Below, piece by piece: positions 1 to 64,000 of a DNA stretch of 64,000 nt. The stretch lies in the IMG/VR virus record IMGVR_UViG_3300021400_000095. One strand, written 5' to 3'. The stretch is from a virus. Taxonomy: Duplodnaviria; Caudoviricetes. Made by a program: the position numbers and the translations under genes. Each line of letters begins with the position of its first letter. Position 1 is the stretch's first letter. The notes under the pieces were generated by a model that was given only the letters and a program-made list of their open reading frames with translations, did not search any database and was not told where the DNA came from.

Positions 1-535
1 GGCAAATATGATATAGGTATTTATTTTTTATGACCTCTTCAGTTACATCAACATCAAATTTTTTTTCATATATTAATCTAATAAGATTATTATACCCATT
101 TAACTTTTCATAAATGCCACAGAACCAACCATACTTTAACAAATATTTGTCAAAATCATTTTGGTTGAAATCATTTTCATTTACATTTATTTCTATTCTT
201 TCAGTATTATTTTGGCTATATTTGTTATAAAATATTATACCATTATAATCATGATAATATTGTTGTTTATCCAAATAAAATAATATTTTGTTTTTTTCTG
301 TTAAATCAGAACCATCATATAAATTAAATAATGATTTTAATGCAAAAATAACATTTTTAATTGGATATGTAGATATTAAGCCTTCTTTTATTAAATAAGG
401 TTTTCTTTCCAACATAGTGGTATACATATTTCCAGCAGCATCATGTTTAGGTAATGTATTAAATAAAACTTCTTCAACTATTTTTTTAACCATTTTACCT
501 AATCTTTTTTCATCTATTTTAATCTTTGTTGTCAT
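1..535 (-). CDS. hypothetical protein truncated by window edge, with L/I-x-E leader; may continue into an ART-like domain
   Basis: Not in ORF track; hand translation MTTKIKIDEKRLGKMVKKIVEEVL...EGLISTYP...KYLYHIC is open to base 1. Confidence 0.75.
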   Translation of the reverse strand, partial: MTTKIKIDEKRLGKMVKKIVEEVLFNTLPKHDAAGNMYTTMLERKPYLIKEGLISTYPIKNVIFALKSLFNLYDGSDLTEKNKILFYLDKQQYYHDYNGIIFYNKYSQNNTERIEINVNENDFNQNDFDKYLLKYGWFCGIYEKLNGYNNLIRLIYEKKFDVDVTEEVIKNKYLYHIC

Positions 536-698
536 TTTTGGTTGAATTTAATTGTTTTATTAATGCATCTCCCATCCTAATTGCCATTCTGGCAACAATA
601 TCAGGTGATGCCTCTAATATTGTGCCAAGTTTTCCACTCTCTAATATTCCCTGCATTGCATTAACTGCTGCTGTAAATCTCATTTCTTCTTCTGTCAT
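519..698 (-). CDS. small hypothetical protein (MTEEEMRFTAAVNAMQGIL)
   Basis: Start moved to ATG 698, downstream of the promoter at 716-747. Confidence 0.65.
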   Translation of the reverse strand: MTEEEMRFTAAVNAMQGILESGKLGTILEASPDIVARMAIRMGDALIKQLNSTKNDNKD

Positions 699-715
699 GC
701 AATATTTTCTTTTTG

Positions 716-747
716 CAAATATATAAATAATTTTCATGATTAACAAA
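716..747 (-). promoter_or_regulatory. Bacteroidota sigmaA-type promoter
   Basis: TTTG-N20-TATATTTG. Confidence 0.7.
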
Positions 748-878
748 TTGTATTTTATATATTTACTATTAATTATTGATATTCTCAAATCAACATAAAT
801 CATTGATAATCCGAAAGTTATATGTATTTTTTCATCATTTGTTAATATTTATATTTGTATAAAAATCTATATTAAACT

Positions 879-4352: not shown

Positions 4353-5958
4353 GGCAATGTTCTTTTATTTTCAAAAATTCATTATATAAATCTTCAACAC
4401 CTGAATAAGATTTTTCAGGTGGGAATAGTTTTTCACTTATAAAGTTAAGAGATTTTTTTGCTCTTGTTATTGCAACATATAAAATATTTTGTTCAGCATT
4501 AATTTCCCATTGTTTTGTTGCCATTTTATTTGGCATCAAGGAAGGGCATAGGATATACACATTATCAGATTCCAAGCCTTTTGCTCTATGAACAGTTGTT
4601 AATTGTATTGCATTATTTTCATCAACCTTATGTTCAATAAACAGTTCATTAATTCTGTTAATAAGTGCTGTTTTATCTTTAATATTTTCAGCCAATGAAT
4701 TAAATGTCAATAGTTCATCATATGCAATCATAACATCTGATTCACCAACAACACTTTTTAGGTCAGTATGATAAATTTCTGCACAATTTTCCCAGCATTT
4801 AATTAAATTTTTTTCCAAACCCAATCTAATTTCATCAATATCATTTGTTTGGAAATTATTTAATAAACTAATTAAATTATTTGCAAAGTCATATCCTTTG
4901 ACATAAACTTGTTTATTTTGGTTAATCAATTGTATATACAATTTAACCAATGGTGATGTTAATCTACATAAAATCATATCACCATTTTTAATATTGTCAA
5001 AGCCAACATTATAATTGATTTCACCTTCAATTGCAGACTCTGATGGAACAAAATCATTAACTATTTCTCTTGCTCTTTCTGCAATTTTTTTTGCACATCT
5101 ATATGTTATATTTAATTTAAATTGCTTAATATTTGGTTTTTTATTAAATGTTTTAAATGCATCTTCATCAGAACCACACCATGCATTAATTGTTTGAAAT
5201 GAATCACCAAAAATTAAAAACCTTGTGTTTCTTTTCATGCAAATATTAATTAAATTTTGTTGTGCTGGTGATGAATCCTGTGCTTCATCTACAAAAATGA
5301 CATCATAAGATAACCATTTTATACCACCAACAATTCCAAGTTCATATGGAAGCCAAATCATATCAGTATAATCTATTTCATTAATATTTGTGCTTCCCCA
5401 TTTCATGATTTTTCTTACTGCTTCACATTCATTGGAAAAAATATTTACACCATATTTAATAACCATCTTATTGATTTCCTTAATGGATTGCATTAAATTA
5501 AATCTGGAATAATCCAATAATTTTTCAATATTTCTCATATATCTTGCCTTGTCAGCATTTGAAAAATTATCAAATTCATTATTGAACTCATGTAAATGCT
5601 GATGAATATAATCCCTATATTTGTTGTCATTAACAACAATATTCTTATATTTTGCTTGCAAAATCTTTAACCCAAGACTATGATATGTCATTACATCAAT
5701 GTGTTGCTTTCTTTCCTTAAATCTTTCTCTTAAATTTTCAGCAATATGCACATTATATGAAAGAACAAGAACAGATTTGTCCTCAGGAACAAAAAGTGTT
5801 CCAAGTTCAATTGTCTTTGATTTTCCACTACCAGCTCTTGATTCAATGGAAGCATTACCAATTCCATGTGCTATGAAATCACATATTCTAACTTGTTCAT
5901 CTGATGGTAAATTGTCTTTTAATATGCTTTTGAATCTGTTGTCTTGCTTATCTATCAT
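4342..5958 (-). CDS. UvrD/Rep-like superfamily 1 helicase
   Basis: SRAGSGKS, VDEAQD, GDxxQ, TYRC, TVHRAKGLE, YVAITRAK; start moved downstream of promoter. Confidence 0.92.
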   Translation of the reverse strand: MIDKQDNRFKSILKDNLPSDEQVRICDFIAHGIGNASIESRAGSGKSKTIELGTLFVPEDKSVLVLSYNVHIAENLRERFKERKQHIDVMTYHSLGLKILQAKYKNIVVNDNKYRDYIHQHLHEFNNEFDNFSNADKARYMRNIEKLLDYSRFNLMQSIKEINKMVIKYGVNIFSNECEAVRKIMKWGSTNINEIDYTDMIWLPYELGIVGGIKWLSYDVIFVDEAQDSSPAQQNLINICMKRNTRFLIFGDSFQTINAWCGSDEDAFKTFNKKPNIKQFKLNITYRCAKKIAERAREIVNDFVPSESAIEGEINYNVGFDNIKNGDMILCRLTSPLVKLYIQLINQNKQVYVKGYDFANNLISLLNNFQTNDIDEIRLGLEKNLIKCWENCAEIYHTDLKSVVGESDVMIAYDELLTFNSLAENIKDKTALINRINELFIEHKVDENNAIQLTTVHRAKGLESDNVYILCPSLMPNKMATKQWEINAEQNILYVAITRAKKSLNFISEKLFPPEKSYSGVEDLYNEFLKIKEHCHES

Positions 5959-5973
5959 TTTATCTTTTTTATA

Positions 5974-6005
5974 CAAATATATAAAAATATTTTGTTTTTT
6001 TCAAA
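5974..6005 (-). promoter_or_regulatory. Bacteroidota sigmaA-type promoter
   Basis: TTTG-N20-TATATTTG. Confidence 0.7.
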
Positions 6006-6091
6006 CAATTATAATATATATTATTGAATCATCTTGAAAGTGAGCATATATTTTTTAGTTACTGAGTGCCTTTTCCTGCTAATGATTCAAA

Positions 6092-6182: not shown

Positions 6183-8390
6183 ATGGGAAAATATTCAGAT
6201 AACATAACTCCTGAAAATTATATTAATTATTTGCATAAATTTGAAACAGTTGATGAATATGAAGAAGAAAAATATGGTTTTGGAAAACCATTTGTTTCAT
6301 GGACTGTTGAAGATGATGGTGTAAATTATAATAAAAATCTTGCAGACCCAAATATGCCATTAACATTTATTGTTTGTAGTGATGGGATTGTTAGATGGAA
6401 AGCATCTAATACAGGTGGTACAAGGTCAATACAATATAGTAAGAATGGTGGTACATGGATAAGCATTACTAGTGCCACAGGAAACACAGCACCAAGTATA
6501 TCAGTTGTTTCTGGTGATACTGTACAATTTAGAGGTGATAATAATAGTTATGCTATAGATAGTGCTAATGCAAAATATTCAACATTTTCTGGCACAACCT
6601 GTCAATTTAAAGTGCTTGGTAACATTATGAGTTTGATAAGTAGTGCTAATTATTCAACATTAAAAGAATTTCCAACAAATAGTAGTATTAATTTTGGATA
6701 TTTGTTTAGGGATTGTAGAACTTTAATTGATGCAACTTATTTAGTGTTACCTGCTACAACTTTAGCAGATAGTTGTTATATTGGTATGTTTCTTGGTTGT
6801 TATGGTTTAACTACTGTACCTGAATTACCAGCCACAACATTAGCACAACAATGCTATTGTATGATGTTTAGTGAATGTTATGCTTTAACAACATTGCCAT
6901 CTAATTTATTACCTGCAACAACAATGGCTGCAAGTGCATATACATATATGTTTTATGCTTGTACTGGTTTAACAGGTGTACCTGAATTACCAGCAACTAT
7001 ATTGGCAGATAATTGTTATGATAATATGTTTAGTGATTGTTATGGTTTAACAACATTGCCATCTAATTTATTACCTGCAACAACATTAACCCCTGCTTGT
7101 TATCAATATATGTTTGCTGGTTGTTATAGTTTAACTACATTGCCATCTACTTTATTACCTGCAACAACAATGGCTGCAAGTGCATATACATGTATGTTTA
7201 GTAGTTGTACTGGCTTAACATCAATACCATCTAATTTATTACCTGCCACCACCTTAGCACCATATTGTTATAATAGTATGTTTGGAAGATGTGATGGCTT
7301 AACATCAATACCATCTGATTTATTACCTGCTACTACATTAGCAGAGAAATGTTATAATATGATGTTTTATGATTGTTATGGTTTAACATCAATACCATCT
7401 AATTTGTTACCAGCCACCACATTAGCACCATATTGTTATAGTGAAATGTTTTGGAGTTGTTCTGGTTTAACATCAATACCATCAGGTTTCTTACCAGCCA
7501 CCACCTTAGCACCATATTGTTATAATAGTATGTTTTGGAGTTGTTATGGTTTAACATCAATACCATCTGATTTATTACCTGCCACTATTTTAGCAAATGG
7601 TTGTTATGATAATATGTTTGCTGGTTGTTATAGTTTAACTACATTGCCATCTACTTTATTACCTGCAACAACAATGGCTGCAAGTGCATATACAAGTATG
7701 TTTTGTGGTTGTAGTGGTTTAACATCAATACCATCAGGTTTCTTACCAGCCACCACCTTAGCACCACATTGTTATAGTAGGATGTTTGTTCATTGTGCTG
7801 GTTTGGAAAGCATTCCATCTGATTTATTACCTGCTACTACATTAGCAGATGTTTGTTATGCTAGTATGTTTTGTGGTTGTAGTGGTTTAACATCAATACC
7901 ATCTACTTTATTACCTGCCACTACCTTAGCACCACATTGTTATAGTGAAATGTTTATTTATTGTTCAGGATTAACCTCAGTACCATCTAATTTATTACCT
8001 GCTACAAGTTTATCTGGTGGAGAATATTGTTATCAGAGGATGTTTTGGAATTGTAGAAGTTTAACATCATTACCTTCTAATTTATTACCTGCAACTGAAT
8101 TAACAGAAGGTTGCTACTTTGGTATGTTTAGTGGATGTACTGTATTAACAACAGCCCCAGATTTACCTGCACCAACATTGATATCAAATTGTTATCAAAG
8201 TATGTTCCAAGGTTGTAGTAATTTGAATTATATTAAATGTCTTGCAACAAATATATCAACATCTAATTGTACATATAATTGGGTAAGATATGTTACATCA
8301 TCAGGTACATTTATCAAAGCAGCATCAATGTCATCATGGACAACAGGAAATAATGGTATTCCATATAATTGGACAGTTCAAGATGCTTAA
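6183..8390 (+). CDS. Cys-rich LRR-like repeat protein, 18 repeats
   Basis: 24/26-aa repeats SIPSxLLPATTLAxxCYxxMFxxCxGLT; caps shared with 879..2066. Confidence 0.8.
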   Translation: MGKYSDNITPENYINYLHKFETVDEYEEEKYGFGKPFVSWTVEDDGVNYNKNLADPNMPLTFIVCSDGIVRWKASNTGGTRSIQYSKNGGTWISITSATGNTAPSISVVSGDTVQFRGDNNSYAIDSANAKYSTFSGTTCQFKVLGNIMSLISSANYSTLKEFPTNSSINFGYLFRDCRTLIDATYLVLPATTLADSCYIGMFLGCYGLTTVPELPATTLAQQCYCMMFSECYALTTLPSNLLPATTMAASAYTYMFYACTGLTGVPELPATILADNCYDNMFSDCYGLTTLPSNLLPATTLTPACYQYMFAGCYSLTTLPSTLLPATTMAASAYTCMFSSCTGLTSIPSNLLPATTLAPYCYNSMFGRCDGLTSIPSDLLPATTLAEKCYNMMFYDCYGLTSIPSNLLPATTLAPYCYSEMFWSCSGLTSIPSGFLPATTLAPYCYNSMFWSCYGLTSIPSDLLPATILANGCYDNMFAGCYSLTTLPSTLLPATTMAASAYTSMFCGCSGLTSIPSGFLPATTLAPHCYSRMFVHCAGLESIPSDLLPATTLADVCYASMFCGCSGLTSIPSTLLPATTLAPHCYSEMFIYCSGLTSVPSNLLPATSLSGGEYCYQRMFWNCRSLTSLPSNLLPATELTEGCYFGMFSGCTVLTTAPDLPAPTLISNCYQSMFQGCSNLNYIKCLATNISTSNCTYNWVRYVTSSGTFIKAASMSSWTTGNNGIPYNWTVQDA
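6740..8220 (+). repeat. intragenic 72/78-bp tandem repeats
   Basis: Includes an 81-bp perfect duplication, 7110-7190 = 7614-7694. Confidence 0.85.
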
Positions 8391-8414: not shown

Positions 8415-8828
8415 ATGGCAAAGATTAATTTAGATGAGGGAAAAATCAGAGAAATTGTTTCTGAAAGCATTAAGAATATATTAAAAGAAATTGATGAAAA
8501 CTACAGGCCAAAACATGTTTGGGTTGACAGTAGGGTTAAAGGTATTGGCATGTCATGGTATAGAGGTGGTCATGACGAAATGACTTTGGAACAATTGCAG
8601 CAGTTATTGGATGAACATGATGCTTGCATCTATTATGATGAACAATTTTATGATAATGTGAATGATGTTCCATTTAAACCAAAATATATTGGAATTGAAG
8701 AATTTGGAATGCCAACATATAGAGGGGTTTATTCCAACCCAAGTTGCACTGTTGTGCCAAAAGGAACAACAATGGAAGTAGGATATTGTTCAAGAAGATT
8801 TAAATTCCCTGAAAAGAAAGAAGTTTAA
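8415..8828 (+). CDS. hypothetical protein with L-x-E leader
   Basis: KINLDEGKIREIVSESIKNILKE. Confidence 0.7.
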   Translation: MAKINLDEGKIREIVSESIKNILKEIDENYRPKHVWVDSRVKGIGMSWYRGGHDEMTLEQLQQLLDEHDACIYYDEQFYDNVNDVPFKPKYIGIEEFGMPTYRGVYSNPSCTVVPKGTTMEVGYCSRRFKFPEKKEV

Positions 8829-11775: not shown

Positions 11776-12144
11776 TTAAATCAATTTTTCTAAACAATAT
11801 TTAATACCTGCTTCACAAGCTTCTTCATAGGTATCCTGAATAGGAATATTGTCTCCAAACTTTTCAGCACAAGTCCAATCTTCCAGTGTTATGACTGTTG
11901 GGTTCCAATCACCTTCTGATGGGTCAACATCAACATGTAACTTATGTACCTCTCTCAGCCACTTCATTGCCATTTGAAGTGTAGGTGCATCAAGGTATCT
12001 TTCAGGATTTCTTGACCTATCAGTTATATTATAATCACCAACAATTTTATCACTGATAAAAAATTGTTTATCTGTGTTCCAATTAAACCCCTTCTCTTTC
12101 AGGAGTTTAGCTGTTTCAAAACTTACATAATCTTCTGTAATCAT
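11776..12144 (-). CDS. family A cassette protein, copy 1
   Basis: MITEDYVSFETAKLLKEKGF / PTLQMAMKWLRE / YEEACEAxIKYCLExLI. Confidence 0.85.
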   Translation of the reverse strand: MITEDYVSFETAKLLKEKGFNWNTDKQFFISDKIVGDYNITDRSRNPERYLDAPTLQMAMKWLREVHKLHVDVDPSEGDWNPTVITLEDWTCAEKFGDNIPIQDTYEEACEAGIKYCLEKLI

Positions 12145-12147
12145 AAT

Positions 12148-12537
12148 CTAAATCAAATTTTTAAGACAATATTTAATAGCAGCTTCACAGGCTTCCTCAT
12201 AAGAAAAATAGAAGGTTTTATCATTTTCATCACCCTTAGAATCTATATAATCCACTCCATTTTCCAATATCTTTGTGATAATATACATCCACCCTAAAGC
12301 ATTTGCAAAATAAAGCCAATGAATATCAAGATTTATGTGAATATTATAATTTTCCCTCAGCCACTTCATGACCATTTGTAGGGTTGGACAATAAATTGGG
12401 AAAAAGTTGCTTGGAACTACATATGCTGATTCCATTTCTATTCCTTTTTCAGTATAGAATGTGTGCATCTTCCCTTCAAACCCCTTTTCTTTTAAGAGTT
12501 TTGCTGTTTCAAAACTTACATAATCTTCTGTTATCAT
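12148..12537 (-). CDS. family A cassette protein, copy 2
   Basis: Same three blocks; start set at MITED. Confidence 0.85.
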   Translation of the reverse strand: MITEDYVSFETAKLLKEKGFEGKMHTFYTEKGIEMESAYVVPSNFFPIYCPTLQMVMKWLRENYNIHINLDIHWLYFANALGWMYIITKILENGVDYIDSKGDENDKTFYFSYEEACEAAIKYCLKNLI

Positions 12538-12981
12538 AATTAAATCAAATTTTCTATACAATATTTAATAGCAGCTTCACAAGCATCTTTGAACATCCAA
12601 TCAAAAGATGTGTAGTTTTCTCTTTTATATTTCCCATCAAAACCAAGTACAGAGTAGGCATAATGTGGGTTTCCAATAAGGTCAATGCTCATCTTTAACT
12701 CAATGAAAAGTTTATGCATTTCCCACAACCACTTCATTGCCATTTGAAGAGTTGGGCAAGCAATAAGATGCATATCTCCTTCATGCCTCTTATGATATAT
12801 CATTTCTCCCACAACACAACCCCTTGGTTTGCCATCCCCAACAAAATAGTTTACAGATGTATTTTCATCAAACCCCTTCTCTTTTAATAGTTTTGCTGTT
12901 TCAAAGCCAACATAATCTTCAGTTATCATAATTAAATCAAATTTTCTATACAATATTTAATAGCAGCTTCACAAGCATCTT
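12530..12981. repeat. 60-bp perfect direct repeat spanning gene junctions (12530-12589, 12922-12981)
   Basis: gttatcataattaaatcaaattttctatacaatatttaatagcagcttcacaagcatctt twice. Confidence 0.9.
12540..12929 (-). CDS. family A cassette protein, copy 3
   Basis: Same three blocks; start set at MITED. Confidence 0.85.
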   Translation of the reverse strand: MITEDYVGFETAKLLKEKGFDENTSVNYFVGDGKPRGCVVGEMIYHKRHEGDMHLIACPTLQMAMKWLWEMHKLFIELKMSIDLIGNPHYAYSVLGFDGKYKRENYTSFDWMFKDACEAAIKYCIENLI

Positions 12982-13306
12982 CATAAGTTATATAACCATC
13001 ATCTTTTGATACCACAAAATTACCATCTTTATATACATCAAATTGGTAATTATCACAAGAATAATCCCCATAAGGATAGATAGCAACATGAATCTTATGT
13101 ACTTCCCTCAACCACTTCATAGCCAATTGAAGAGAGCATACTGCTATAACTTCATCATCAGAATTGTACCCATATCCAGTTCCTGGATTAAGTCTTTTGA
13201 ATATGCCATTTATATATACACCTCTGAATGAATCATATGGAATAATAAATCCTTTCTCTGTTAGGAGTTTGGCTATCTCATAACTAATGTAATCTTCTGT
13301 AACCAT
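12932..13306 (-). CDS. family A cassette protein, copy 4
   Basis: MVTEDYISYEIAKLL / SLQLAMKWLRE / YEDACEAAIKYCIENLI. Confidence 0.85.
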   Translation of the reverse strand: MVTEDYISYEIAKLLTEKGFIIPYDSFRGVYINGIFKRLNPGTGYGYNSDDEVIAVCSLQLAMKWLREVHKIHVAIYPYGDYSCDNYQFDVYKDGNFVVSKDDGYITYEDACEAAIKYCIENLI

Positions 13307-13308
13307 AA

Positions 13309-13701
13309 TCAAATCAAATTTTCAAGACAATATTTTATTGCAGATTCTGCTGCTTCTTCATAGGAAGTATAGTATTCTCTTACATAATCATCTGGTAACA
13401 TATTCTTTCCAGAAGTAGTATAATCTAAAGACATATAATAAATCTGAAAATATATGGTAGTGTGTGGTTGGAGCAAAAGGGATGTTGCATATTGGATTTC
13501 AACAAACAAATTATGTTCCTCTCTTAACCACTTCATTGCCATTTGGAGTGTTGGGGCAGATATATAATCCTTACCCCTATGGTTATATGTACAATACCCC
13601 CAATATTCACCATTGCTACTGTAATATCCACAATACTCATCAAACCCTTTCTCTTTCAATAGTTTGGCAGTTTCAAAACTTATATAATCTTCAGTAATCA
13701 T
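13309..13701 (-). CDS. family A cassette protein, copy 5
   Basis: Same three blocks. Confidence 0.85.
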   Translation of the reverse strand: MITEDYISFETAKLLKEKGFDEYCGYYSSNGEYWGYCTYNHRGKDYISAPTLQMAMKWLREEHNLFVEIQYATSLLLQPHTTIYFQIYYMSLDYTTSGKNMLPDDYVREYYTSYEEAAESAIKYCLENLI

Positions 13702-13826
13702 ATCTGTTCTTCTTTATACATTTCTTTATATGCTTTATATATGGTGCATGTCTTACATTTCTCTTTTATTGGATTACATCTTACATTACACCAATATTTT
13801 GCCATTATATATTCTGCTTTTGTCAT
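13698..13826 (-). CDS. 42-aa four-Cys microprotein inside the family A array
   Basis: MTKAEYIMAKYWCNVRCNPIKEKCKTCTIYK...; stop overlaps next ATG (ATGA). Confidence 0.6.
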   Translation of the reverse strand: MTKAEYIMAKYWCNVRCNPIKEKCKTCTIYKAYKEMYKEEQI

Positions 13827-13828
13827 AT

Positions 13829-14275
13829 CTAAATCAAATTTTCTAGACAATATTTAATAGCTGCTTCACAGGCTTGTTCATAAGTAAGAAATAGTTCTTT
13901 ACTCATTTTTGAATAAGTGTCATCCATCAAACTCTCCACAAACCAATTATATCCAACAACAGCAGGTTCCCAATCACCATATTGTACCTCAACATCTTTC
14001 CATACACCAAGGGCATAAATGTTGAGACCTTGTACATCCCTCAACCACTTCATTGCCATTTGAAGGGTTGGTGCAGAAATCATAATTGGACTCCATTCAC
14101 ATTCTGAATTAGTGTAAGCAAGTATCTGCTCACCATATCCTTCACTACAAAAAATTCCAAGTGAAGATACAAGCTGTAACTCTCCATCATGATAGACAGA
14201 AATACATCTTTCATTAAACCCCTTTTCTTTCAAAAGTTTTGCTGTTTCAAAACTTACATAATCTTCAGTAATCAT
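13829..14275 (-). CDS. family A cassette protein, copy 6
   Basis: Same three blocks; start set at MITED. Confidence 0.85.
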   Translation of the reverse strand: MITEDYVSFETAKLLKEKGFNERCISVYHDGELQLVSSLGIFCSEGYGEQILAYTNSECEWSPIMISAPTLQMAMKWLRDVQGLNIYALGVWKDVEVQYGDWEPAVVGYNWFVESLMDDTYSKMSKELFLTYEQACEAAIKYCLENLI

Positions 14276-14301
14276 ACAAATCTTATTAGTAAAAACACAA
14301 A

Positions 14302-14514
14302 CTAAACAATAAATAAAAGTGGAAATGTGTACAAAAACAGTATTAATACAGACTCTGCTGCATCTTTCCATGTCTCTTTTATTCTTTTTTTTTGAGATGT
14401 TCCTTTTATCCAACAGGTATCATCTTTTACATCTTTAAAATAATGTATAAATGTAGCAATAAAAAAAACCAATAATAAAACAAAATATAACAAAGCAAAA
14501 TGCCAAAAATTCAT
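14302..14514 (-). CDS. small two-TM membrane protein
   Basis: Two hydrophobic stretches. Confidence 0.6.
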   Translation of the reverse strand: MNFWHFALLYFVLLLVFFIATFIHYFKDVKDDTCWIKGTSQKKRIKETWKDAAESVLILFLYTFPLLFIV

Positions 14515-14517
14515 ATC

Positions 14518-15706: not shown

Positions 15707-16057
15707 TTATTCTTTTTTAACAAAATTATTGTTTTCATACATTGAAACAATCATGTCAAGACATGTCGTTGGTGGAATATAACCTTTAACCTCAATCTCA
15801 TCCTTATACAAATCAAATATAACCATAAGGAGAAAATGACAATATATATAATTTTTTTTCTTTGATTCTTTTGCCATTTCAATAAGAAAGGGCATTATTT
15901 CTTTGCCAAGTGCCACAACATTTTTAACATGTACATCATCATTATTAATAATAGAGTTAAACCTATTTTCTTCAAACCATTTCTGTGCTTCATCAATTAT
16001 ATATTGTTCAGTATCAGTTTTTGGTTTTAATATAAGTGGATATGTTTCTGGTAGCAT
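15707..16057 (-). CDS. hypothetical protein
   Basis: ORF in operon. Confidence 0.6.
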   Translation of the reverse strand: MLPETYPLILKPKTDTEQYIIDEAQKWFEENRFNSIINNDDVHVKNVVALGKEIMPFLIEMAKESKKKNYIYCHFLLMVIFDLYKDEIEVKGYIPPTTCLDMIVSMYENNNFVKKE

Positions 16058-17505: not shown

Positions 17506-18231
17506 TTAAAATACCTCCCTATTTCCAAATTTATAAACAATTTCACCAAATCCTTCCTTTCTCCTTCTAAGTTCATTCAAGGTATCAGCACAAGGATTCA
17601 TATAACATTCAAATTCCATTGGAAATGAAAATCTCTTTAATCTGTCAGGATTATTATAATCAAGATTATTGGTCTTAATTAATGATGTATAATATTCATT
17701 ATCTGGATTATTCAAATCAACATCATCTGATGTTGCCTTTCCAACAATATCACCATTTCTATTAACATAATATGGTGGATTATCAGGGTCTTTAATCAAA
17801 ACACTATCTTGATTATACTTTCCACATAATTGAATTGCCAAAAGTTTTAATTTTGAAAAATCATCTATTTCTCCTGTTTTCTTCAAATGATTAAAGATAA
17901 TAAATGATGGTTCATAACTATCAACAATACCATCAGTACCATGATAGCCACCATATACAGGGAAATAACCATAGTCACAAGCCTTTAAATCATTAATAAG
18001 GCTTTTTGTGTTCTTATTATTAACATCATTAGGCTGGCCAGTTCTATTGGCTGAAACAATTACATAACCATCATTTCCATGCTTGTTAATAATTCTTGAC
18101 AATGTTTCCTCATTGAGTTTTTGCAAAGGATATTCATTGTCAATATTATATAATTCCTTGAAAATGGTTCTTCCATCAACTGCTTCACCAATTCTTTCCA
18201 TTAAATTCTTTATTTCATTTAAATGTCCCAT
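17506..18231 (-). CDS. phage hypothetical protein
   Basis: IVSANR...YGGY...ExSF...KYNQDSVL pattern. Confidence 0.7.
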   Translation of the reverse strand: MGHLNEIKNLMERIGEAVDGRTIFKELYNIDNEYPLQKLNEETLSRIINKHGNDGYVIVSANRTGQPNDVNNKNTKSLINDLKACDYGYFPVYGGYHGTDGIVDSYEPSFIIFNHLKKTGEIDDFSKLKLLAIQLCGKYNQDSVLIKDPDNPPYYVNRNGDIVGKATSDDVDLNNPDNEYYTSLIKTNNLDYNNPDRLKRFSFPMEFECYMNPCADTLNELRRRKEGFGEIVYKFGNREVF

Positions 18232-18245
18232 ATATTTTAATTTAA

Positions 18246-19019: not shown

Positions 19020-19020
19020 A

Positions 19021-20788: not shown

Positions 20789-21067
20789 TTACACTATTGC
20801 CCACTCTGCACCTGCTTTGAAACCATCAATACAGCCGTGGTCATAGTCAGCAATAGAGGCAATGGCATAATCCTTTGAATAAAGTTGTTTTCTAGCATTG
20901 TCTGCAAAATCTATTGCTGCCTCATCAAGATTGGAGGGGAGAGAAGGCTGCAAATTATTCACTATATCATCAGCAAATCTGTTTAACATAATCTCCAATT
21001 CTTCCTTCTCCATGGCATGACCTTCATACACAGAGATATATTGATTAATTATTTGTTCTCTATTCAT
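20789..21067 (-). CDS. family C module protein
   Basis: QPSLPSNLDEAA...GFKAGAEW. Confidence 0.65.
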   Translation of the reverse strand: MNREQIINQYISVYEGHAMEKEELEIMLNRFADDIVNNLQPSLPSNLDEAAIDFADNARKQLYSKDYAIASIADYDHGCIDGFKAGAEWAIV

Positions 21068-39692: not shown

Positions 39693-42164
39693 ATGAGTAG
39701 ACCAATTAGTATAACAAGTGCTGCAACTTTTATTCCTTCATCATTTGATAATGTTAATTCTTCATATGCATCAAATTACAATGATGGCAGTACAGCTGTT
39801 GATGGTATTTACAATGGAAATGTAATAAGTAATGGATATACTGATAGTGGCTCAACAACTAGAGCTGCTTTTTATACAAACACAGGACAATCAGCAGAAA
39901 GTTATTTTTATTATAATTTTGATTGTTCTTCAATACCAGAAAGTGCAACAATAAATTCAGTTTCTTGTGTAGTAAAATGTGGTACACAAGGCACTAATTA
40001 TTATAATATAAGACAAGCACAGTTATGTACTAATACCACACCTAAAGGTAATGCTACAACAATAACAGGAACCAATACTAGCCCATCAACACATTCATTA
40101 ACAACAGGAACTTGGACAAGAGAAGAGTTAGCAAATTGTAAAATTAGAATGTATATAACTAAACTTAGTAGTGGGACAGGAGCAACTGGTTATTCTACAG
40201 TTTCATTTTATGGTGCAAGTTTGAAAGTTGAATATTCTGTTGAAGGTAGCATGTATGATATTAATGCTTCAAGTGATACTGATTTAGCAACAGTTGAACC
40301 TTCATCACAAGAAGTTTTTCAAAATCAAAATGGTATTGTTAAAATTAATGTTGATGATGTTAGCAGCATAATTGTTAAAGATAATAATGTTGATGTAACT
40401 GACCAATTGGTTGCAAAACAAAAAGTTACATCTGGTTCTTCTGAAACAGTATTAGGTGAATACACACTTTTAAGTGGTGGGTTTAATGGTAATGGTGCTA
40501 GTTATTTCCAAGGTCTTGTTGGGAAAGGGGTTACAGGTTCTACTACATCATCAAATTATTATAGTTCAGGTAGTAGAACTATTGCTGGTTTTACATACAA
40601 TTTAATTTTTAACAATATCCCATCAAATGCAACAATTACAAGATTATATTGTCAAGTAAATGGACATGCTGAAAGCACCTCAAATAATAATGAATACATG
40701 TGTGCTCAGTTAATACTTGGTACTACTGCAACAACATTAAGTGAAGAACTTAACTTTAAATCCATTGGTACTAGTAATTCAACACAAACAATAGAAGCAA
40801 CAACATTACCAACAGTTGCACAACTTCCAAATTTGAAATTATATTGTAGATTGGGTTATTATGGTGGTGCAATCAATGGTGCAACATGTTATGTTGAATA
40901 TACTATTCCTGATAGTGGTAATCCATATTATTATGAATATACTGTTACAAATATTACTGAAGACCATGTAATACTTGTAACTGAAAATGTTATTATACCA
41001 CCTGAGGAAGACCCTGATAAGACATATTATCCAATAACAATATCTGCAATTAATGCAACAACAACGCCATCAAAAGGTACAACAAGGGTTGAAAGTGGGA
41101 CAAGTGAAACTATTACTATTACACCATCTGACCCAAAATTAACACTTGCATTAGATAATGGTGTTGATATTACAAATCAGTTGGTGAAACATGGTAATAC
41201 ACCTACTTCAGCAATAACAACAGCACCTGGTGCAACTTATGGTTTTACATTAAATACAACAACAGGATATTATACATCAACAAATCAAGGTATTTCAAGT
41301 TCTGCATCTATTGCAAGAGTTACATTCAATTTTTCTGTTAGATACTTAGTTACTTTTGAATATATTAATTATGCTGAAGCAACATATGATTTTGGTGTGT
41401 TTGGTAAAGTTGATACAACATTATCTACATCAGGTTGGAATTCATCACAAACTGCTGGTGATACTACAACAGATGCAGGTTTAGAACAAATAAGATTAAA
41501 CACTGCATCATATAATACACCAACACCACAAACAATAACATATGAAGTGCCTTCAGGTACACATTATATTGATATTAAATATGGTAAAGATGAAGCAACT
41601 GATTCAAACAATGATAATCTTCAATTTAAGATATTATCAATGGAGCCAGTTGATGTTGATTTATATTATACATATGATTTAAATAATATAAATCAGTCAC
41701 ATTCTTTAATTTTCATTTTTGGTGATGTAACATATTACTTTGTAACATCACAAACAAATACAGATTGTAAATTATATCCAAATGGTCAAACAGTTGCATT
41801 ATTAGGTGATTCATATAAACTTACAATTGTACCATCAAATCTTACTGATACTATTTCAGTAACAGACAATGGTGTAGATGTAACAAATAATATTGAAAGA
41901 AAAGAAATAGAAACAGTTAAAGAAGGTGTCCCAACAATATTTGTCAACTATATATATAAATTAACAAATATTCAAAGTGCACATACAATTAATGTTATTT
42001 CTTCCACTGGTAATGTTTTATATTTAAAGAAAAATCAATATATAACAGTATATAAAGTTTTCAGAAAAGAATATAGTGAAAAAGAAAAACAACATATCTG
42101 GTCAGAACAAGAAATTTCTATTGATTTATTTGATAATAATACTATTTATATTAAACATAACTAA
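39693..42164 (+). CDS. large multi-domain virion/adhesin-like protein
   Basis: Repeated DNGVDVT and IPxxATI modules. Confidence 0.65.
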   Translation: MSRPISITSAATFIPSSFDNVNSSYASNYNDGSTAVDGIYNGNVISNGYTDSGSTTRAAFYTNTGQSAESYFYYNFDCSSIPESATINSVSCVVKCGTQGTNYYNIRQAQLCTNTTPKGNATTITGTNTSPSTHSLTTGTWTREELANCKIRMYITKLSSGTGATGYSTVSFYGASLKVEYSVEGSMYDINASSDTDLATVEPSSQEVFQNQNGIVKINVDDVSSIIVKDNNVDVTDQLVAKQKVTSGSSETVLGEYTLLSGGFNGNGASYFQGLVGKGVTGSTTSSNYYSSGSRTIAGFTYNLIFNNIPSNATITRLYCQVNGHAESTSNNNEYMCAQLILGTTATTLSEELNFKSIGTSNSTQTIEATTLPTVAQLPNLKLYCRLGYYGGAINGATCYVEYTIPDSGNPYYYEYTVTNITEDHVILVTENVIIPPEEDPDKTYYPITISAINATTTPSKGTTRVESGTSETITITPSDPKLTLALDNGVDITNQLVKHGNTPTSAITTAPGATYGFTLNTTTGYYTSTNQGISSSASIARVTFNFSVRYLVTFEYINYAEATYDFGVFGKVDTTLSTSGWNSSQTAGDTTTDAGLEQIRLNTASYNTPTPQTITYEVPSGTHYIDIKYGKDEATDSNNDNLQFKILSMEPVDVDLYYTYDLNNINQSHSLIFIFGDVTYYFVTSQTNTDCKLYPNGQTVALLGDSYKLTIVPSNLTDTISVTDNGVDVTNNIERKEIETVKEGVPTIFVNYIYKLTNIQSAHTINVISSTGNVLYLKKNQYITVYKVFRKEYSEKEKQHIWSEQEISIDLFDNNTIYIKHN

Positions 42165-47366: not shown

Positions 47367-47379
47367 ATTTTTATATAAT

Positions 47380-47643
47380 TTATACCAAGTTATATTTTAC
47401 AATAGGCCCATTATTAATATATGGAATAGCCCTGATTGTATTGTAATCAATAAACTCCATTGCATCCTCAACAGTCATACCATCTTCTTCAACAAGACAA
47501 TCTACCATTTTATCATAATCATAAATTACTCTATTGTCTTGTGAAATACCAATAAATGCATTGGCATAATCTGGATTTTCAAAAACAACTGCTTCCTCAG
47601 TACCATTATCTATTAATAATGTTTTTAATTCATCTAATGTCAT
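47380..47643 (-). CDS. phage hypothetical protein
   Basis: AFIG...IYDYDKM...DAMEFIDYN; sigmaA promoter 47661-47692. Confidence 0.7.
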   Translation of the reverse strand: MTLDELKTLLIDNGTEEAVVFENPDYANAFIGISQDNRVIYDYDKMVDCLVEEDGMTVEDAMEFIDYNTIRAIPYINNGPIVKYNLV

Positions 47644-47680
47644 AACAAATTATTTTTTTACAAATATATGATTTCTTTTT

Positions 47681-51261: not shown

Positions 51262-52041
51262 ATGATTTTTGAAACATTAAAAGAAAAATGTAGATACTTT
51301 CAATCATTATATGATTATAAATTATTGCCAAATTGTTTTGCAATTGCACATCTTGATGGTAGAAGTTTTAGTAAATTAATAAAAAAACAATTTAAACTAC
51401 CTTTTGATGATGATTTTATTAATATGATGAATGAAACTACCAGATATCTATGTGAAAAAGTACAAAATGTTGAATTTGCATTTACACAATCTGATGAAAT
51501 AACACTTATTATTAAAGATAATAGTCAGACTGATTTACCATTTGGTGGAAGATTATGTAAATTACAATCTATACTTGCTTCAATGGCAAGTACTAAATTC
51601 AATCAATTATATTTAATTAATAAAATTAAATCACAAGAAGAAAAAATTAAAACAAATGAAGATATTTGTAATTTAATTGAAAATCATAAATTAGTAGAAT
51701 TTGATTGTAAAATTTGGTCAGTTCCATCATTAAATGATGTAAAGGCTTGGCTAATATTTAGACAAAATGATTGTATTAGAAATTCAAGACAACAAACAGC
51801 ACAAACCTATTGCAGTTATAAAGAACTTTTAAAAAAAGGTGCAAAAGAACAAGTTAATTACTTAAAAGAAAAAACTGGTATTGATTGGGATTCATTATCA
51901 GATGATAAAAAATATGGAAGAATCTTTAAAAAAGTTCAAACTGAAAAACAAAAGGAAATTAATGGTGAAACAATAACCTTTATGAGAAATACATGGGAAA
52001 TAGAATCAAAAATAATTGATTTTACTAACTTTGGTGAATAA
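51262..52041 (+). CDS. Thg1-like tRNA(His) guanylyltransferase / 3'-5' polymerase
   Basis: LDGRSFS, QSDEI, FGGRxxK, FDC, RQNDCIRNS. Confidence 0.92.
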   Translation: MIFETLKEKCRYFQSLYDYKLLPNCFAIAHLDGRSFSKLIKKQFKLPFDDDFINMMNETTRYLCEKVQNVEFAFTQSDEITLIIKDNSQTDLPFGGRLCKLQSILASMASTKFNQLYLINKIKSQEEKIKTNEDICNLIENHKLVEFDCKIWSVPSLNDVKAWLIFRQNDCIRNSRQQTAQTYCSYKELLKKGAKEQVNYLKEKTGIDWDSLSDDKKYGRIFKKVQTEKQKEINGETITFMRNTWEIESKIIDFTNFGE

Positions 52042-52418: not shown

Positions 52419-52856
52419 TTATTTTTTTAATTTACAATAACATTTTCCATTTTTAAGATGAACTGTTTCTATGTTAGCACATTTGTTTGCCCAAGATTCA
52501 GTATAGAAATTATAATAACATTTTGCCTTACTAAATGTTGCCCAAAAAATACTAGGAATACCAATAACAAATAAATATAGAACACCTAAAATCTTGCTTT
52601 GTACTGTGTGCCCATCTAATTCATGTGGGATACCATAATCAACTTCTGTTAATTTATAATCAACAAAACTAAATGGGCCTAAAGAAATTCCACCATGCAT
52701 TTTGCTTGCCTTGAAACATATATTAAAATGCCTAATACCAACAACTTCTAGTTTTCCAATGAATGGAATCATAACTAATGAAACTAAAAATTGTGGGAAT
52801 TGCCATATACATAACAAAACAAATATAAACCACCAAAAAAAACTTTTCTTTTCCAT
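52419..52856 (-). CDS. membrane protein with HE-x-x-x-H motif
   Basis: HELDGHTVQS...FYTESWA; ACTATTTATA at 52871-52880. Confidence 0.6.
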   Translation of the reverse strand: MEKKSFFWWFIFVLLCIWQFPQFLVSLVMIPFIGKLEVVGIRHFNICFKASKMHGGISLGPFSFVDYKLTEVDYGIPHELDGHTVQSKILGVLYLFVIGIPSIFWATFSKAKCYYNFYTESWANKCANIETVHLKNGKCYCKLKK

Positions 52857-61223: not shown

Positions 61224-61259
61224 ATTATATATTTTTTTTCATATTCTAAATTATTTTGG

Positions 61260-63329
61260 TTATTCAGTTGGTAATTCACCATAGTTTCCATCAAAATCAA
61301 TTGAAATTACTTCACCATTCTTTCTTGAAAGTTTAAGGCCATCATTAACTTTAAGTGAGTGACCATTATCTGCTAAAGTAAACCCTTCAATTTCATCTTC
61401 TCTTTCAGTTGCTCTTTCAGTTTCAGCATCAATCTTATTATCAAGCATTGTTTCTGCTGAAATTGCTCTTTCTGTCTCAGCATCAATTTTCTCATTAAGC
61501 ATTGTTTCTGCTGAGATTGCCCTTTCTGTTTCAGCATCAATTTTTTCATTGATTTCTTCATCAGCAGCAACTCTGTCAGCAATTTCTTGTGTCAAGGCAC
61601 TCCAAATGGCAGTTTCTTCAGTAATTGCTCTTTCTGTCTCAGCATCAATCTTATTATCAAGCATTGTTTCTGCTGAAATAGCCCTTTCAGTCTCAGCATC
61701 AATTTTATTATCAAGTGCTGTTTCTGTTGAAATTGCTCTTTCAATTTCATTATCAATTCTTTCATTGATTTCTTCATCAGCAGCAATTCTATCTGCTGTT
61801 TCTGCTGACAATGCTGATTCTAAGTCATCAATTCTTTCATTAATTTCATCAAATTCTTTACTGAATTCTTTTTTAAGTGCTTCAACTGTATCAATAAGTT
61901 CATAGACACCATCTTCAACCTCATATACTCTCCATTCATGATAAGTATCACCTGAAGTTGCAGGGTCATTATCATAATCAAGAATAACAACTGAATCACC
62001 AGGTCTCATTTGTTTTTTGACCCATTCAGCACCATTCCATTCATTAATGAAATATAAGTCTTGTTTTTCTCTATCTTCATCAACTAATTTATTCCATTGT
62101 TTACCTCTCTTACCATCAAATTCAGGATTTGTAAAACCAATATTAACTGAAGTCCAAATTTGGCTATAGTTAGTATCAGGATTTGAAATTAAAACACAAG
62201 GAACATTATAACCAAGAATATTTGTATATTCATTAAAATCAGTACATTCCAAATTAAAATCTCTAACAAGTCTCAATGATAATCTTGAACTTGGTTTTGA
62301 AGATTCTTCAAGAACATGTGTTGAATCAAATGAGAATGTTCTTGTATATATATTTGGTTGTGCAGATTTGAATTTACTACCTGTTGGTGTGTTTGACCAG
62401 AATGATGAAACCTTTCCAAGACCTTCAATATCATAATTGAAATCACTGGTAATAGCACCTCTACTACCTTCAGCATAACCTACAGGAATAACATGGAAAG
62501 TACCATCACTACCTGTCATTGGAAGGTTATCAAGACCCTTTGTTGGATTACCATCATCATCACCATCAAAGTCTTCCCAAGATGTTGTTGATTTTGCTCT
62601 TATACCTGCAACACATCCTTTCCATTCATTGATTGAATCTGATGTATGATTTCTACACTCATCACAATATTCAGCAGAATTAAGCATTTCACCCCAGTCT
62701 TTTCTTGTAGGGACTCTCCAAGGACTGTTCATTGCAGTTAAAGCACTTTGAATTGCTGTAACACCTTCAAAATTATAAAGAAGGCCAAAAGGCTCAATAG
62801 TTTCTTTTGTTACAATTCTAAAGCCTTTACCAAGGTTATCACCATCAGGCATTGTATTTGCACTGATAGTAAGGTCAAGGAAATATTTTGCAGGAGCATA
62901 TGTACCTGTTTTTTCTACTTCACTAAGTCTAAGTGGGTTACATATTCTACCATCACCTCTAAGTGTATAATCAGTTGCTACTCTCACATCACAACCTTCA
63001 AGAACAAATCCATCTAAAATTTCTTCAGTACCATCAGGGAATGTAATAATAATCTTGCCACTCTTTTTATCAAGTTCAAAATGTGCCTTTGGCATTTCAG
63101 CAACAAGTTTATCACCATTAACTCTTGTTAAAACAAGGTCATTATCAACATATTCAGCATCTTTAATATCATATCCTCTTAAGAAATAGAAATTTTGGTC
63201 CATTTCATTAGCAAGGAGACCACAATGCTTAACATAATCTCCAGGATATTTTGATTGTAATTTAAAATATGTTACACCATTTATTGTTTGCATTACAGCC
63301 CCTTTAGATGTAGTAATATTATTTGCCAT
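61260..63329 (-). CDS. structural protein with FISUMP-like domain and 18-aa coiled-coil repeats
   Basis: GLLYN, WRVPTRKDW, FWS, SLRLVRD; IDAETERAISAETMLDNK repeats; ACTATTTATA at 63360-63369. Confidence 0.65.
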   Translation of the reverse strand: MANNITTSKGAVMQTINGVTYFKLQSKYPGDYVKHCGLLANEMDQNFYFLRGYDIKDAEYVDNDLVLTRVNGDKLVAEMPKAHFELDKKSGKIIITFPDGTEEILDGFVLEGCDVRVATDYTLRGDGRICNPLRLSEVEKTGTYAPAKYFLDLTISANTMPDGDNLGKGFRIVTKETIEPFGLLYNFEGVTAIQSALTAMNSPWRVPTRKDWGEMLNSAEYCDECRNHTSDSINEWKGCVAGIRAKSTTSWEDFDGDDDGNPTKGLDNLPMTGSDGTFHVIPVGYAEGSRGAITSDFNYDIEGLGKVSSFWSNTPTGSKFKSAQPNIYTRTFSFDSTHVLEESSKPSSRLSLRLVRDFNLECTDFNEYTNILGYNVPCVLISNPDTNYSQIWTSVNIGFTNPEFDGKRGKQWNKLVDEDREKQDLYFINEWNGAEWVKKQMRPGDSVVILDYDNDPATSGDTYHEWRVYEVEDGVYELIDTVEALKKEFSKEFDEINERIDDLESALSAETADRIAADEEINERIDNEIERAISTETALDNKIDAETERAISAETMLDNKIDAETERAITEETAIWSALTQEIADRVAADEEINEKIDAETERAISAETMLNEKIDAETERAISAETMLDNKIDAETERATEREDEIEGFTLADNGHSLKVNDGLKLSRKNGEVISIDFDGNYGELPTE

Positions 63330-63444
63330 ATTTAAATACTATTTGTCAATTATTTTTCTTATAAATAGTTGTTATTTTCAATAAATATTTGCCTAACATT
63401 ATATTTTTAAATAATAAAAACCTCTTTATATAAAGAGGTTGCAT

Positions 63445-64000
63445 TTAGTTAGATAATTTGTTTTTAATATTAAGATAATTAAGTTGGCAGTTATATATTT
63501 TAAATGTTTTTATATCACCAATAAAACTTCCACAGAAATCTTTTTCAATTGGAAAAACATAATCATTTGTCTTATAATAATCAGGCAAAATTGATTCAAG
63601 GAGACCTTGTGTTCCACCACCCAATGACATATTATAAGGGACTGCTTCTTGTTTTTGATAAGTGTCATTTAATTCCCTAAAATTAAATTCATCAAGTTCC
63701 TTAGTAACAAAAACTAAAAATCCATTTACATAAAAATATAACTTCATTTTTCTTTTTCCCTTTTTAGGGTCACAAATACCATTAAATGATGGATTTATAA
63801 TTGATATTTTAACAGTTATATAATTCCATACATCAGGTTTAATAAGACCTGGTTTTGAATATTCTTCTTTAACTGTATAATGTTGGTCATTATCTGCATC
63901 ACAATCCAAAACAGCATATTTATAACCTATTGCACCATCATCAGTAATTCTAAGGCCAAAAGAATTGTTTTTAATATCTTTATATATGTTATATGGTATT
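63445..64000 (-). CDS. C-terminal part of a LamG-like structural protein, truncated
   Basis: Frame open to window end; WNYITV, YFYVNG, FIGDIKTFKIY. Confidence 0.6.
   Translation of the reverse strand, partial: IPYNIYKDIKNNSFGLRITDDGAIGYKYAVLDCDADNDQHYTVKEEYSKPGLIKPDVWNYITVKISIINPSFNGICDPKKGKRKMKLYFYVNGFLVFVTKELDEFNFRELNDTYQKQEAVPYNMSLGGGTQGLLESILPDYYKTNDYVFPIEKDFCGSFIGDIKTFKIYNCQLNYLNIKNKLSN

Follow-up and report, generated by a model that had tools for sequence, protein, structure and literature searches.

A 64-kb stretch of jumbo phage DNA nearly devoid of the dinucleotide CG

Genes and dinucleotide composition of the window

The window, by which we mean the whole 64,000-nucleotide stretch of phage DNA analysed here, contains 99 open reading frames (ORFs), intact and covering 92% of its length. 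The DNA comes from the 353-kb genome of a jumbo phage of cattle and sheep guts (rumen). Start-codon signals suggest a Bacteroidota host. A search for the host by MAG binning was uninformative, as it gave two distant matches only, including one to a Methanobrevibacter MAG. None of the 99 ORFs was assigned to a DNA methyltransferase, deaminase or nuclease family, and a search of the window for PF00145, PF01555 and PF02086 gave no match. Thg1-like and TROVE/Ro60-like proteins are encoded, as well as a homologue of SAM lyase (Table 1), which was matched by sequence to no solved structure and which, if active, would leave the phage DNA unmethylated. Relatives G001 to G003, in which GATC is near 0, have the SAM lyase too, and it is absent in G004 and G005, where GATC is present. 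As a general correlate of the purge it was rejected, since it was found in none of 46 other records, purged or unpurged.

Table 1. Coordinates of the features discussed in the text
Feature	Position	Strand	Remarks
CG-purged DNA	1..64000	.	5 CG vs 1,343 expected, in the three codon phases and non-coding DNA; GATC absent
Surviving CG	812..813	.	the sole non-coding one; within divergent intergenic region 804-878
Surviving CG	8576..8577	+	codon junction GAC|GAA; synonymous removal possible (GAT)
Surviving CG	15767..15768	-	within Thr codon ACG, synonymous position
SAM lyase homologue	17506..18231	-	PF23780, 43 bits, cut-off 28
Surviving CG	20836..20837	-	codon junction CAC|GGC; synonymous removal possible
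Surviving CG	41065..41066	+	Thr codon ACG, residue 458 of an 823-aa protein
Small hydrophobic protein	52419-52856		145 aa, HExxH-like

The CG dinucleotide was counted 5 times, for 1,343 expected from base composition (29.2% G+C). This corresponds to an observed/expected ratio (o/e) of 0.004, a deficit of 99.6%, or a depletion of about 250 fold. Even when the expectation is lowered to the level found in relatives (o/e 0.49, ∼658 sites), the probability of 5 or fewer CG is ∼1e-274. The near-complete elimination of CG read by eye in the original prediction is therefore confirmed, down to the same five positions, and so are its remarks that GC is common (the ratio is normal, 1.12 on the given strand and 1.10 strand-symmetric) and that Arg is written AGA or AGG (441 and 128 of the 569 Arg codons, the CGN codons being 0). 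CA and TG are above expectation, at 1.45 and 1.35.

The loss does not depend on context. Each of the 16 NCGN contexts has a ratio of 0.00-0.01, and the loss of ACGT and TCGA is no more complete than that of the non-palindromic ACGA/TCGT (2/342). Nor does the reading frame matter: there are 2 NCG codons, C|G codon junctions number 2 instead of 418, and among third positions occupied by C or T the share of C is 0.001 before G, against 0.14-0.28 before A, C or T. Non-coding DNA contains 1 CG where 54 are expected. CG is thus a short word far below its compositional expectation on either strand and whatever the frame, which is how restriction-site avoidance is recognised. We conclude that the purge is real, and independent of reading frame and flanking bases.

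Whether CG is read in DNA or in RNA is a question on which the divergent intergenic regions, where the window is least transcribed, have a bearing. Recognition of CG in transcripts during infection by an RNase or RNA sensor, so that CG-free messages survive, would impose an additive cost per transcript and hence a smooth selective gradient; ZAP and RNase L are animal examples of sensing at the RNA level. RNA repair and tRNA functions are found in this phage (the Thg1-like and TROVE/Ro60-like proteins) and in the CG-purged phage crAss001 described below (TROVE, a polynucleotide kinase and a tRNA array), and the tRNA region of crAss001 contains many of its surviving CGs. However, the divergent regions, which include untranscribed promoter DNA, are purged too, with 1 CG for ∼15 expected (P=0.007 even if half of such DNA is untranscribed), and we know of no CG-specific bacterial RNase. 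Selection on RNA is in our opinion an unlikely explanation.

Words other than CG, which the original prediction did not mention, are also avoided: GATC is absent for ∼171 expected per strand, and AGCT and CTAG are depleted about 5 fold. As to the five surviving CGs, the one at 41065 is replaced by CA in contigs from 3 of 4 other runs (three studies), and is therefore polymorphic. A motif-free segment of first-entering DNA, of the T5 first-step-transfer type, was considered and rejected, since the survivors are scattered over the whole 64 kb.

Relatives and strains of the phage

Three relatives, with ∼50-58% protein identity to the window, were compared. CG o/e was 0.49 in G002, 0.53 in G050 and 0.76 in G001, and it extended from 0.31 to 1.3 across 24 IMG/VR relatives. 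Computing k-mer ratios, as had been proposed, thus sets 0.004 over the 64-kb window against 0.49-0.76 in relatives, and the purge is specific to this phage lineage.

What the relatives erase is particular sites: GATC, CGCG, CGWCG, CCGG and several CG hexamers, and further GCGC, TCGA, ACGT, ATCGAT, CGTACG, CTCGAG, GACGTC and GTCGAC, the set of avoided CG sites varying among relatives. Since they keep CG and yet erase specific sites, site avoidance is a habit of this phage family. Close pairs of CG are also depleted in the relatives, but this is due to avoidance of the specific sites CGCG and CGWCG (3/140 for the latter), CGSCG being spared (53/59), and sensing of CG clusters was rejected on this ground. 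No CG-free islands were found in the relatives. Methyltransferases are present in some of the relatives that retain CG.

A host population with numerous restriction-modification systems directed at CG-containing sites, removed singly until nearly no CG was left, would fit the long, relative-specific list of shunned sites, as well as the avoidance of GATC, AGCT and CTAG in the window. Palindromic 4- and 6-mers, however, span at most ∼1/3 of CG contexts, while non-palindromic contexts are equally purged. Furthermore, avoidance in the window is limited to 3 of the 11 non-CG palindromic tetramers, and others are at or above expectation (AATT 0.98, CATG 1.13, GGCC 1.3, TGCA 2.1). We regard this removal of ordinary sites one by one as improbable.

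Comparison with G002 shows what took the place of CG. Per 1,000 dinucleotides, the window has 11.0 fewer CG and 11.6 more CA+TG, and at conserved amino-acid pairs 34 of 38 C|G junctions have become T|G. The TG/CA excess that the original prediction expected relative to CG in relatives is thus present, and it is what mutational decay of CG to TG/CA would leave, be it through CpG methylation, with an enzyme of the host or of the phage, or through editing by a CG-context deaminase. Synonymous replacement under selection predicts an equal gain of TG/CA, so that dinucleotide counts do not separate the two readings, and the replacements seen are the sole or commonest synonymous ones. Several observations go against decay. 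Of 26 CGN Arg positions of G002, 17 are Arg (AGR) in the window as well (108 of 182 for its AGR positions), a codon change that requires a transversion, and no excess of Cys, Trp, His or Gln was detected in the window where relatives have CGN Arg. At NCG positions of G002 the window has NCA (16) and NCT (15) at equal frequency. At mutational equilibrium, CG transitions would have to be ∼900-930 times faster than the reverse.

The same comparison bears on a sequencing or assembly artefact, for instance a modified CG misread as something else. No point in its favour was found: the ORFs are intact over 92% of the window, conserved Arg codons are AGR and not conversion products, and, for a 10-kb stretch of the window, a fraction of 0.2-0.98 of the sampled 31-mers was recovered in gut runs of 14 studies. 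We consider an artefact hardly credible. Contigs of the phage in runs X3, X4, X7 and X10 are 2-3% divergent. Among the 40 strain differences of this phage listed out of 706, CG-creating ones were 0 for 2.1 expected (P=0.12); strain-level DNA of the phage was sought in INPHARED, IMG/VR, JGI metagenomes and GTDB genomes, and none was found.

CG-purged crAss-like phages as a stand-in

Two cultured Bacteroides phages, crAss001 (MH675552) and DAC15 (MT074136), have a CG o/e of 0.028 and 0.021. They are like the window in that CG is nearly gone, GC is normal, GATC is absent or low, and no DNA methyltransferase was found in the records of their clusters (PF00145, PF01555 and PF02086 were sought in 22 purged crAss-like IMG/VR records, without a match). 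Unlike it, they belong to a different order (Crassvirales, ∼100 kb) and their hosts are known, crAss001 growing on B. intestinalis APC919/174 and DAC15 on B. thetaiotaomicron. A single small window protein, the 145-aa one of Table 1, has homologues in both. A literature search returned no paper describing a CG purge in this phage or in crAss-like phages.

In three purged crAss-like strain clusters of IMG/VR, CG-creating differences were at 0.23, 0.46 and 0.09 of expectation, meaning that new CGs are 2-11 times below it, the unpurged clusters being at 1.32 and 1.07. Transitions at CG, relative to other C/G, were increased 1.5, 3.4 and 1.3 fold in the purged clusters, and 1.5 and 1.1 fold in the unpurged ones, far from the ∼930 fold excess required by decay. 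No TG<->CA tandem excess was found in the two largest clusters. A skew of CG-creating variants towards singletons was tried as a signal of selection and rejected: it is also present in unpurged clusters and therefore does not discriminate. In these stand-in phages the purge is maintained by selection rather than by hypermutation, and by analogy the same may hold for the jumbo phage. The chronic CpG methylation followed by deamination put forward in the original prediction, which had also called for a search for a C5-methyltransferase or deaminase, is not borne out. Searches of the window, where a SAM lyase homologue is encoded, detected neither a deaminase family nor a methyltransferase of the C5, N4/N6 or D12 type; the three methyltransferase families were likewise not detected in the 22 purged crAss-like records, nor was a C5 enzyme in G001 to G003. 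Together with the Arg codons kept as AGR and the crAss-like CGs that are not hypermutable, this makes mutational decay very unlikely.

Plasmid p5482, resident in B. thetaiotaomicron, the host of a purged phage, has a CG o/e of 1.19, and so has Bacteroides phage B40-8. The purge thus follows phage lineages and not hosts (p5482, B40-8 and the relatives keep CG; DAC15 and crAss001 do not), as it would if the phage itself destroyed host DNA with a CG-directed nuclease, to which its own CG-less genome is immune. Against such a weapon, no nuclease family was detected in the window. The only window protein with homologues in crAss001 and DAC15, whose gene is missing at the syntenic site of G002, was a candidate purge gene but was rejected: its family (246 IMG/VR loci) is found in purged and unpurged phages alike, including the unpurged relative G050. 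The acquisition of the nuclease while the genome still had thousands of CGs is hard to picture, and a few dozen residual CGs are tolerated. A weapon of the phage's own appears to us unlikely.

Proposed selection against CG and comparison with known systems

The reading we lean to, with moderate assurance, is an ongoing purifying selection against the dinucleotide CG as such, the likeliest agent being a restriction-like, DNA-reading activity met in the host. We infer that the reading takes place on DNA rather than on RNA, and that it is the host which supplies the agent. A putative activity of this kind, encountered during infection, would exact a cost for unmodified CG in rough proportion to the number of sites; CG would be replaced without effect on proteins (CGN Arg to AGR, NCG to NCA or NCT, NNC|G to NNT|G), and self-protection in this phage family would proceed mainly through site avoidance. 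As long as hundreds of sites are left, a classical cutter does not create a selective gradient, and we therefore assume that the cost per site is small and additive. Because p5482 and B40-8 keep CG, the CG reader is not general to such cells, unless these protect their own DNA or only certain strains possess the reader. Counting against selection on CG itself, no enzyme with plain CG specificity was found: a literature search for a CG-specific restriction enzyme was negative, and to our knowledge none with bare-CG specificity is known. The other proposal of the original prediction, selection against CG-containing targets, finds support in its general form, as the loss is independent of frame and context and extends to non-coding DNA, relatives avoid many CG-containing restriction sites, and new CGs are strongly under-represented in purged crAss-like strains. 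The target, however, has to be CG itself and not a set of longer sites.

More tentatively, some Bacteroidota, or their mobile defence islands, may carry an undescribed immunity that reads bare CG in incoming phage DNA, from which unrelated virulent phages (crAss-like phages and this jumbo phage) would escape by rewriting their genomes without CG. The implied selective agent, with its 2-bp specificity, is absent from the catalogue of restriction and defence systems. Since crAss001 and DAC15, gut phages in culture whose hosts are known, have the trait as well, this agent is open to experimental search. A ∼350-kb genome rid of one dinucleotide, with its proteins unchanged, is among the strongest compositional signals in any virus. 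Such genomes violate the assumptions behind k-mer-based host prediction, phage-host range in Bacteroidota may be predictable from CG content, and CG-free design may matter in engineering phages and DNA for Bacteroidota.

The avoidance of restriction sites by virulent phages (Rusinov et al. 2018, PMC6286503, as cited in PMC12707154) is similar in that a short word is selected out of phage DNA, with no methyltransferase found in the window, and the window and relatives show textbook avoidance of GATC, CGCG, CGWCG and CCGG. It differs in that the word here is only 2 bp long, and that ∼1,340 sites per 64 kb were lost, against tens to hundreds for a 4-mer. Methylation-driven depletion of CG reaches ∼0.2 in vertebrates. 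In Mycoplasma penetrans, an under-representation of CpG was tied to the CpG methyltransferase M.MpeI (Wojciechowski et al. 2013, as cited in PMC11282364). Our case shares with it the CG deficit accompanied by a TG/CA excess, but the window yielded no such methyltransferase, the depletion of ∼250 fold far exceeds the methylation-driven cases known to us, and the CGs of purged crAss-like phages are not hypermutable. Finally, vertebrate viruses suppress CpG in response to ZAP or TLR9, sensors which PMC11282364 describes as confined to vertebrates. There too a virus loses CG to evade a sensor that reads it; unlike there, the relatives of this phage keep CG, and the purge extends to probably untranscribed DNA. 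An immunity directed at bare CG, if true, would be the prokaryotic counterpart of animal CpG sensing.

CG loss in the window

A direct count gave five CG dinucleotides in 64,000 bases, at 812, 8576, 15767, 20836 and 41065, exactly the positions read by eye in the original prediction. At 29.2% G+C, 1,343 are expected, i.e. an observed/expected ratio (o/e) of 0.004. GC is ordinary (1.10, strand-symmetric), as the original prediction had it, CA and TG are both up at 1.40, and TA stands at 0.77. With the null set at the nearest relatives' o/e of 0.49, the probability of five CGs or fewer is ∼1e-274. That the deficit is a sequencing or assembly artefact is scarcely conceivable.

Arginine is encoded by AGA (441) and AGG (128) and never by CGN, as already remarked from the sequence alone. 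Only 2 NCG codons are present, and codon junctions read C|G twice, where 418 would be expected. Of third positions that are C or T, the fraction with C is 0.14-0.28 ahead of A, C or T, and 0.001 ahead of G. Whether a given codon is used or avoided depends on the next base alone, so neither codon preference nor tRNA supply can be the cause. All four CGs surviving in coding sequence lie at synonymous positions, and the one at 41065 is CA in contigs from 3 of the 4 other sequencing runs compared.

Non-coding DNA is affected as well, with 1 CG for 54 expected. Divergent intergenic regions, which contain untranscribed promoter DNA, have 1 CG against ∼15 expected, and P is 0.007 even if transcription reaches half of these regions. 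The signal is thus more likely to be read on DNA than on RNA, and an RNA-level reader of CG is quite unlikely.

Another explanation is that avoidance of many ordinary restriction sites, summed up, removed CG. GATC is absent from the window (∼171 copies expected per strand), with a five-fold depletion of AGCT and CTAG. However, palindromic sites account for at most ∼1/3 of CG contexts, ACGA/TCGT (2/342) are purged as thoroughly as ACGT, and 8 of 11 non-CG palindromic tetramers escape avoidance. All 16 NCGN contexts are at 0.00-0.01. Since non-palindromic contexts are equally purged, we consider it unlikely that the purge is the sum of ordinary sites.

Site avoidance among the relatives

The 24 IMG/VR relatives located via the 823-aa protein have CG o/e values of 0.31-1.3, against 0.004 in the window. 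Three relatives that keep CG were analysed in full: G002 (94.5 kb, CG 0.49, 58% identity over 24 reciprocal-best gene pairs), G050 (132.8 kb, CG 0.53, ∼51% identity over 20 shared genes) and G001 (302.6 kb, CG 0.76, few genes in common with the window). No CG-free islands were found in G001 or G002. In all three, GATC is reduced to 0-1 copies in 94-303 kb and CGCG to 1-3 copies, and CGWCG, a Hpy99I-type site, is almost wholly avoided (3/140 in G001); CGSCG is at expectation in G001 (53/59). CCGG is missing from G050 only (0/47), and the hexamers near-totally avoided by relatives include ATCGAT, CGTACG, CTCGAG, GACGTC and GTCGAC. The set of erased sites differs for each of the three. AGCT and CTAG, in more distant relatives, show a mosaic, all-or-none loss. 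Near-total loss of particular sites means that site avoidance is a habit of this family, much of it at CG-containing sites. Within the family, only the lineage of the window widens avoidance to CG itself.

Selection acting on each CG site in the DNA, in a lineage relying on site avoidance, is the best-supported reading; no modification enzyme was found for this lineage among the 99 window ORFs. The simplest candidate agent would be a restriction-like activity of the host that reads unmodified CG. We assume that such a reader spares self DNA, either because that DNA is modified or because only some strains carry the reader, and that its cost per site is small enough to leave a gradient while many sites persist. 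A CG-directed nuclease encoded by the phage itself is quite improbable, as no nuclease family was detected among the 99 ORFs and the window has no gene specifically in common with the purged crAss-like phages.

Gene content

The window is phage DNA: its products include a tail-tip domain, an endolysin amidase and a tail protein of the Fib_succ_major type, together with a UvrD-type helicase, SSB, PRPP synthase, a Thg1-like enzyme, an IF-1 homologue, a TROVE/Ro60-like protein and a SAM lyase. Coding sequence covers 92% of it, and no tRNA gene or Rfam family was matched in the 64 kb. No Shine-Dalgarno motif was seen upstream of the 99 ORFs (GGAG in 3% of upstream regions), where a tract rich in A lies between -15 and -11 and T stands at -1. 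An A-rich upstream tract without Shine-Dalgarno is typical of translation starts in Bacteroidota. When 31-mers were sampled from 10 kb of the window, they recurred in bovine and sheep gut runs from 14 studies.

Features of the window and matching loci in other phages
Feature	Genome	Coordinates	Strand	Remarks
phrog_12005 and phrog_10841 copies	window	11776-14937, 21684-22895, 26141-29568	-	small proteins, ∼130-150 aa; 7 and 6 copies
phrog_12005 match	G002	5695-6048		single locus
phrog_10841 match	G002	7195-7602		single locus
Gene row	window	16519-20111	-	Y01A-like protein, SAM lyase, DUF1848, uncharacterised gene, NUDIX hydrolase
SAM lyase homologue	window	17506-18231	-	sequence match
DUF1848	window	18246-19019	-	family tied by PADLOC to defence reverse transcriptases
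TROVE/Ro60-like protein	window	23817-25430	-	DUF7788 plus DUF2828
TROVE protein Gp96 (coordinates in locus L064)	crAss001	46870-48288
282-aa gene	window	38836-39684	+	upstream of 823-aa gene; distant partial paralogue, ∼28% identity
823-aa protein	window	39693-42164	+	>1,100 homologues
Thg1-like enzyme	window	51262-52041
Small protein	window	52419-52856	-	two hydrophobic segments, HExxH-like motif (HELDGH)

The 823-aa protein's own cluster belongs to a 352,835-base contig, so the phage is a jumbo phage. This protein is 73-75% identical even in phages sharing few other genes (G001), and is probably a structural protein moving between phage lineages. With a single G002 locus for each, both phrog families have expanded in the window's phage. 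tRNA or RNA repair functions are found alike in this phage and in crAss001, which, like DAC15, is a cultured, CG-purged crAss-like phage of Bacteroides.

Two candidate correlates of the purge, the small protein gene at 52419 and the SAM lyase, were rejected. The former belongs to a family of 246 IMG/VR loci, spread over crAss-like and jumbo phages, and purged and unpurged phages carry it alike; its homologues in crAss001 (Gp4) and DAC15 (gene 6) have the motif HExGH and adjoin a tRNA array near the genome end. The SAM lyase is common to the window and G001-G003, missing from G004 and G005, and did not turn up in 46 other records, whether purged or unpurged. The T3 SAM lyase keeps phage DNA unmethylated, and the homologue, if T3-like, would do the same. 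It could counter methylation-dependent systems or, instead, the SAM-AMP signalling of type III CRISPR in Bacteroides (PMC10600005).

Mutation, selection and the crAss-like phages

The original prediction had left two routes to the loss, selection against CG-containing targets, or CpG methylation followed by deamination. Relative to G002, the window has lost 11.0 CG and gained 11.6 CA+TG per 1,000. Synonymous replacements would give the same, so that this balance does not discriminate mutation from selection. Where G002 has a CGN arginine codon (26 positions), the window keeps Arg in 17, always as AGR, compared to 108/182 for AGR positions, and the deamination products Cys, Trp, His and Gln are not in excess at the CGN positions. 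Conserved NCG codons of G002 became NCA in 16 cases and NCT in 15. Under a pure mutation balance, CG transitions would have to outpace the reverse ∼930-fold. In the 99 ORFs, Pfam and PHROGs revealed no family of DNA methyltransferases, deaminases or nucleases, and G001-G003 have no C5 methyltransferase. Of 706 strain differences of this phage, 40 were scored; 2.1 of these would be expected to make a new CG, and 0 do (P=0.12).

Purged crAss-like phages served as stand-in: crAss001 (100 kb, host B. intestinalis) has a CG o/e of 0.028 and DAC15 (50 kb, host B. thetaiotaomicron) of 0.021. From a small membrane protein family, 80 IMG/VR loci were grouped in strain clusters, and differences were scored in consensus-polarised alignments. 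CG-creating differences had an o/e of 0.23 (38 vs 167), 0.46 and 0.09 in purged clusters A, C and D, versus 1.32 and 1.07 in unpurged clusters B and F. Existing CGs underwent transitions 1.5, 3.4 and 1.3 times as often as other C/G in A, C and D, and 1.5 and 1.1 times as often in B and F; CG was partly lost by transversions too. TG↔CA tandem changes, a marker of passage via a hypermutable CG, showed no surplus in A and D, the largest two of the purged clusters (A, 27 vs 21 in the control; D, 13 vs 12), and a small one in C (14 vs 4). No C5, N4/N6 or D12 methyltransferase was found in 22 purged crAss-like records, at least 12 of them complete. Rare CG-creating differences together with little CG hypermutability indicate that selection against new CGs, and no CG-specific mutator, maintains the crAss-like purge. 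By analogy, the jumbo-phage purge would be maintained likewise. Of the two routes, selection is thus the better supported, with CG itself rather than longer sites as target; methylation and deamination, with CGs only 1.3-3.4-fold more mutable in the purged crAss-like clusters, is very unlikely.

Literature searches returned nothing on an almost complete loss of CG in crAss-like or jumbo phages, nor any defence specific for CG; general studies of bacterial and phage CpG, and of how restriction is avoided, did come up. The present analysis adds the site-by-site avoidance spectrum for three relatives, tests at codon junctions and in intergenic DNA, a survey for methyltransferases, the rejection of two candidate correlates, and tests of hypermutability and tandem changes.

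In the 80-locus sample, a CG o/e below 0.1 mostly coincides with GATC near 0, and p-crAss-like contigs have CG at ∼0.55 and normal GATC; the first 50 kb of crAss001 contain no GATC. The B. thetaiotaomicron conjugative plasmid p5482 and the B. fragilis siphovirus B40-8 avoid CGCG (0.07 and 0.10) and CTAG (0 and 0.02), and pressure on these two words seems to be general in Bacteroides DNA. Both have a CG o/e of 1.19, meaning that CG is tolerated in some DNA within these bacteria: the CG penalty varies with phage lineage or host strain.
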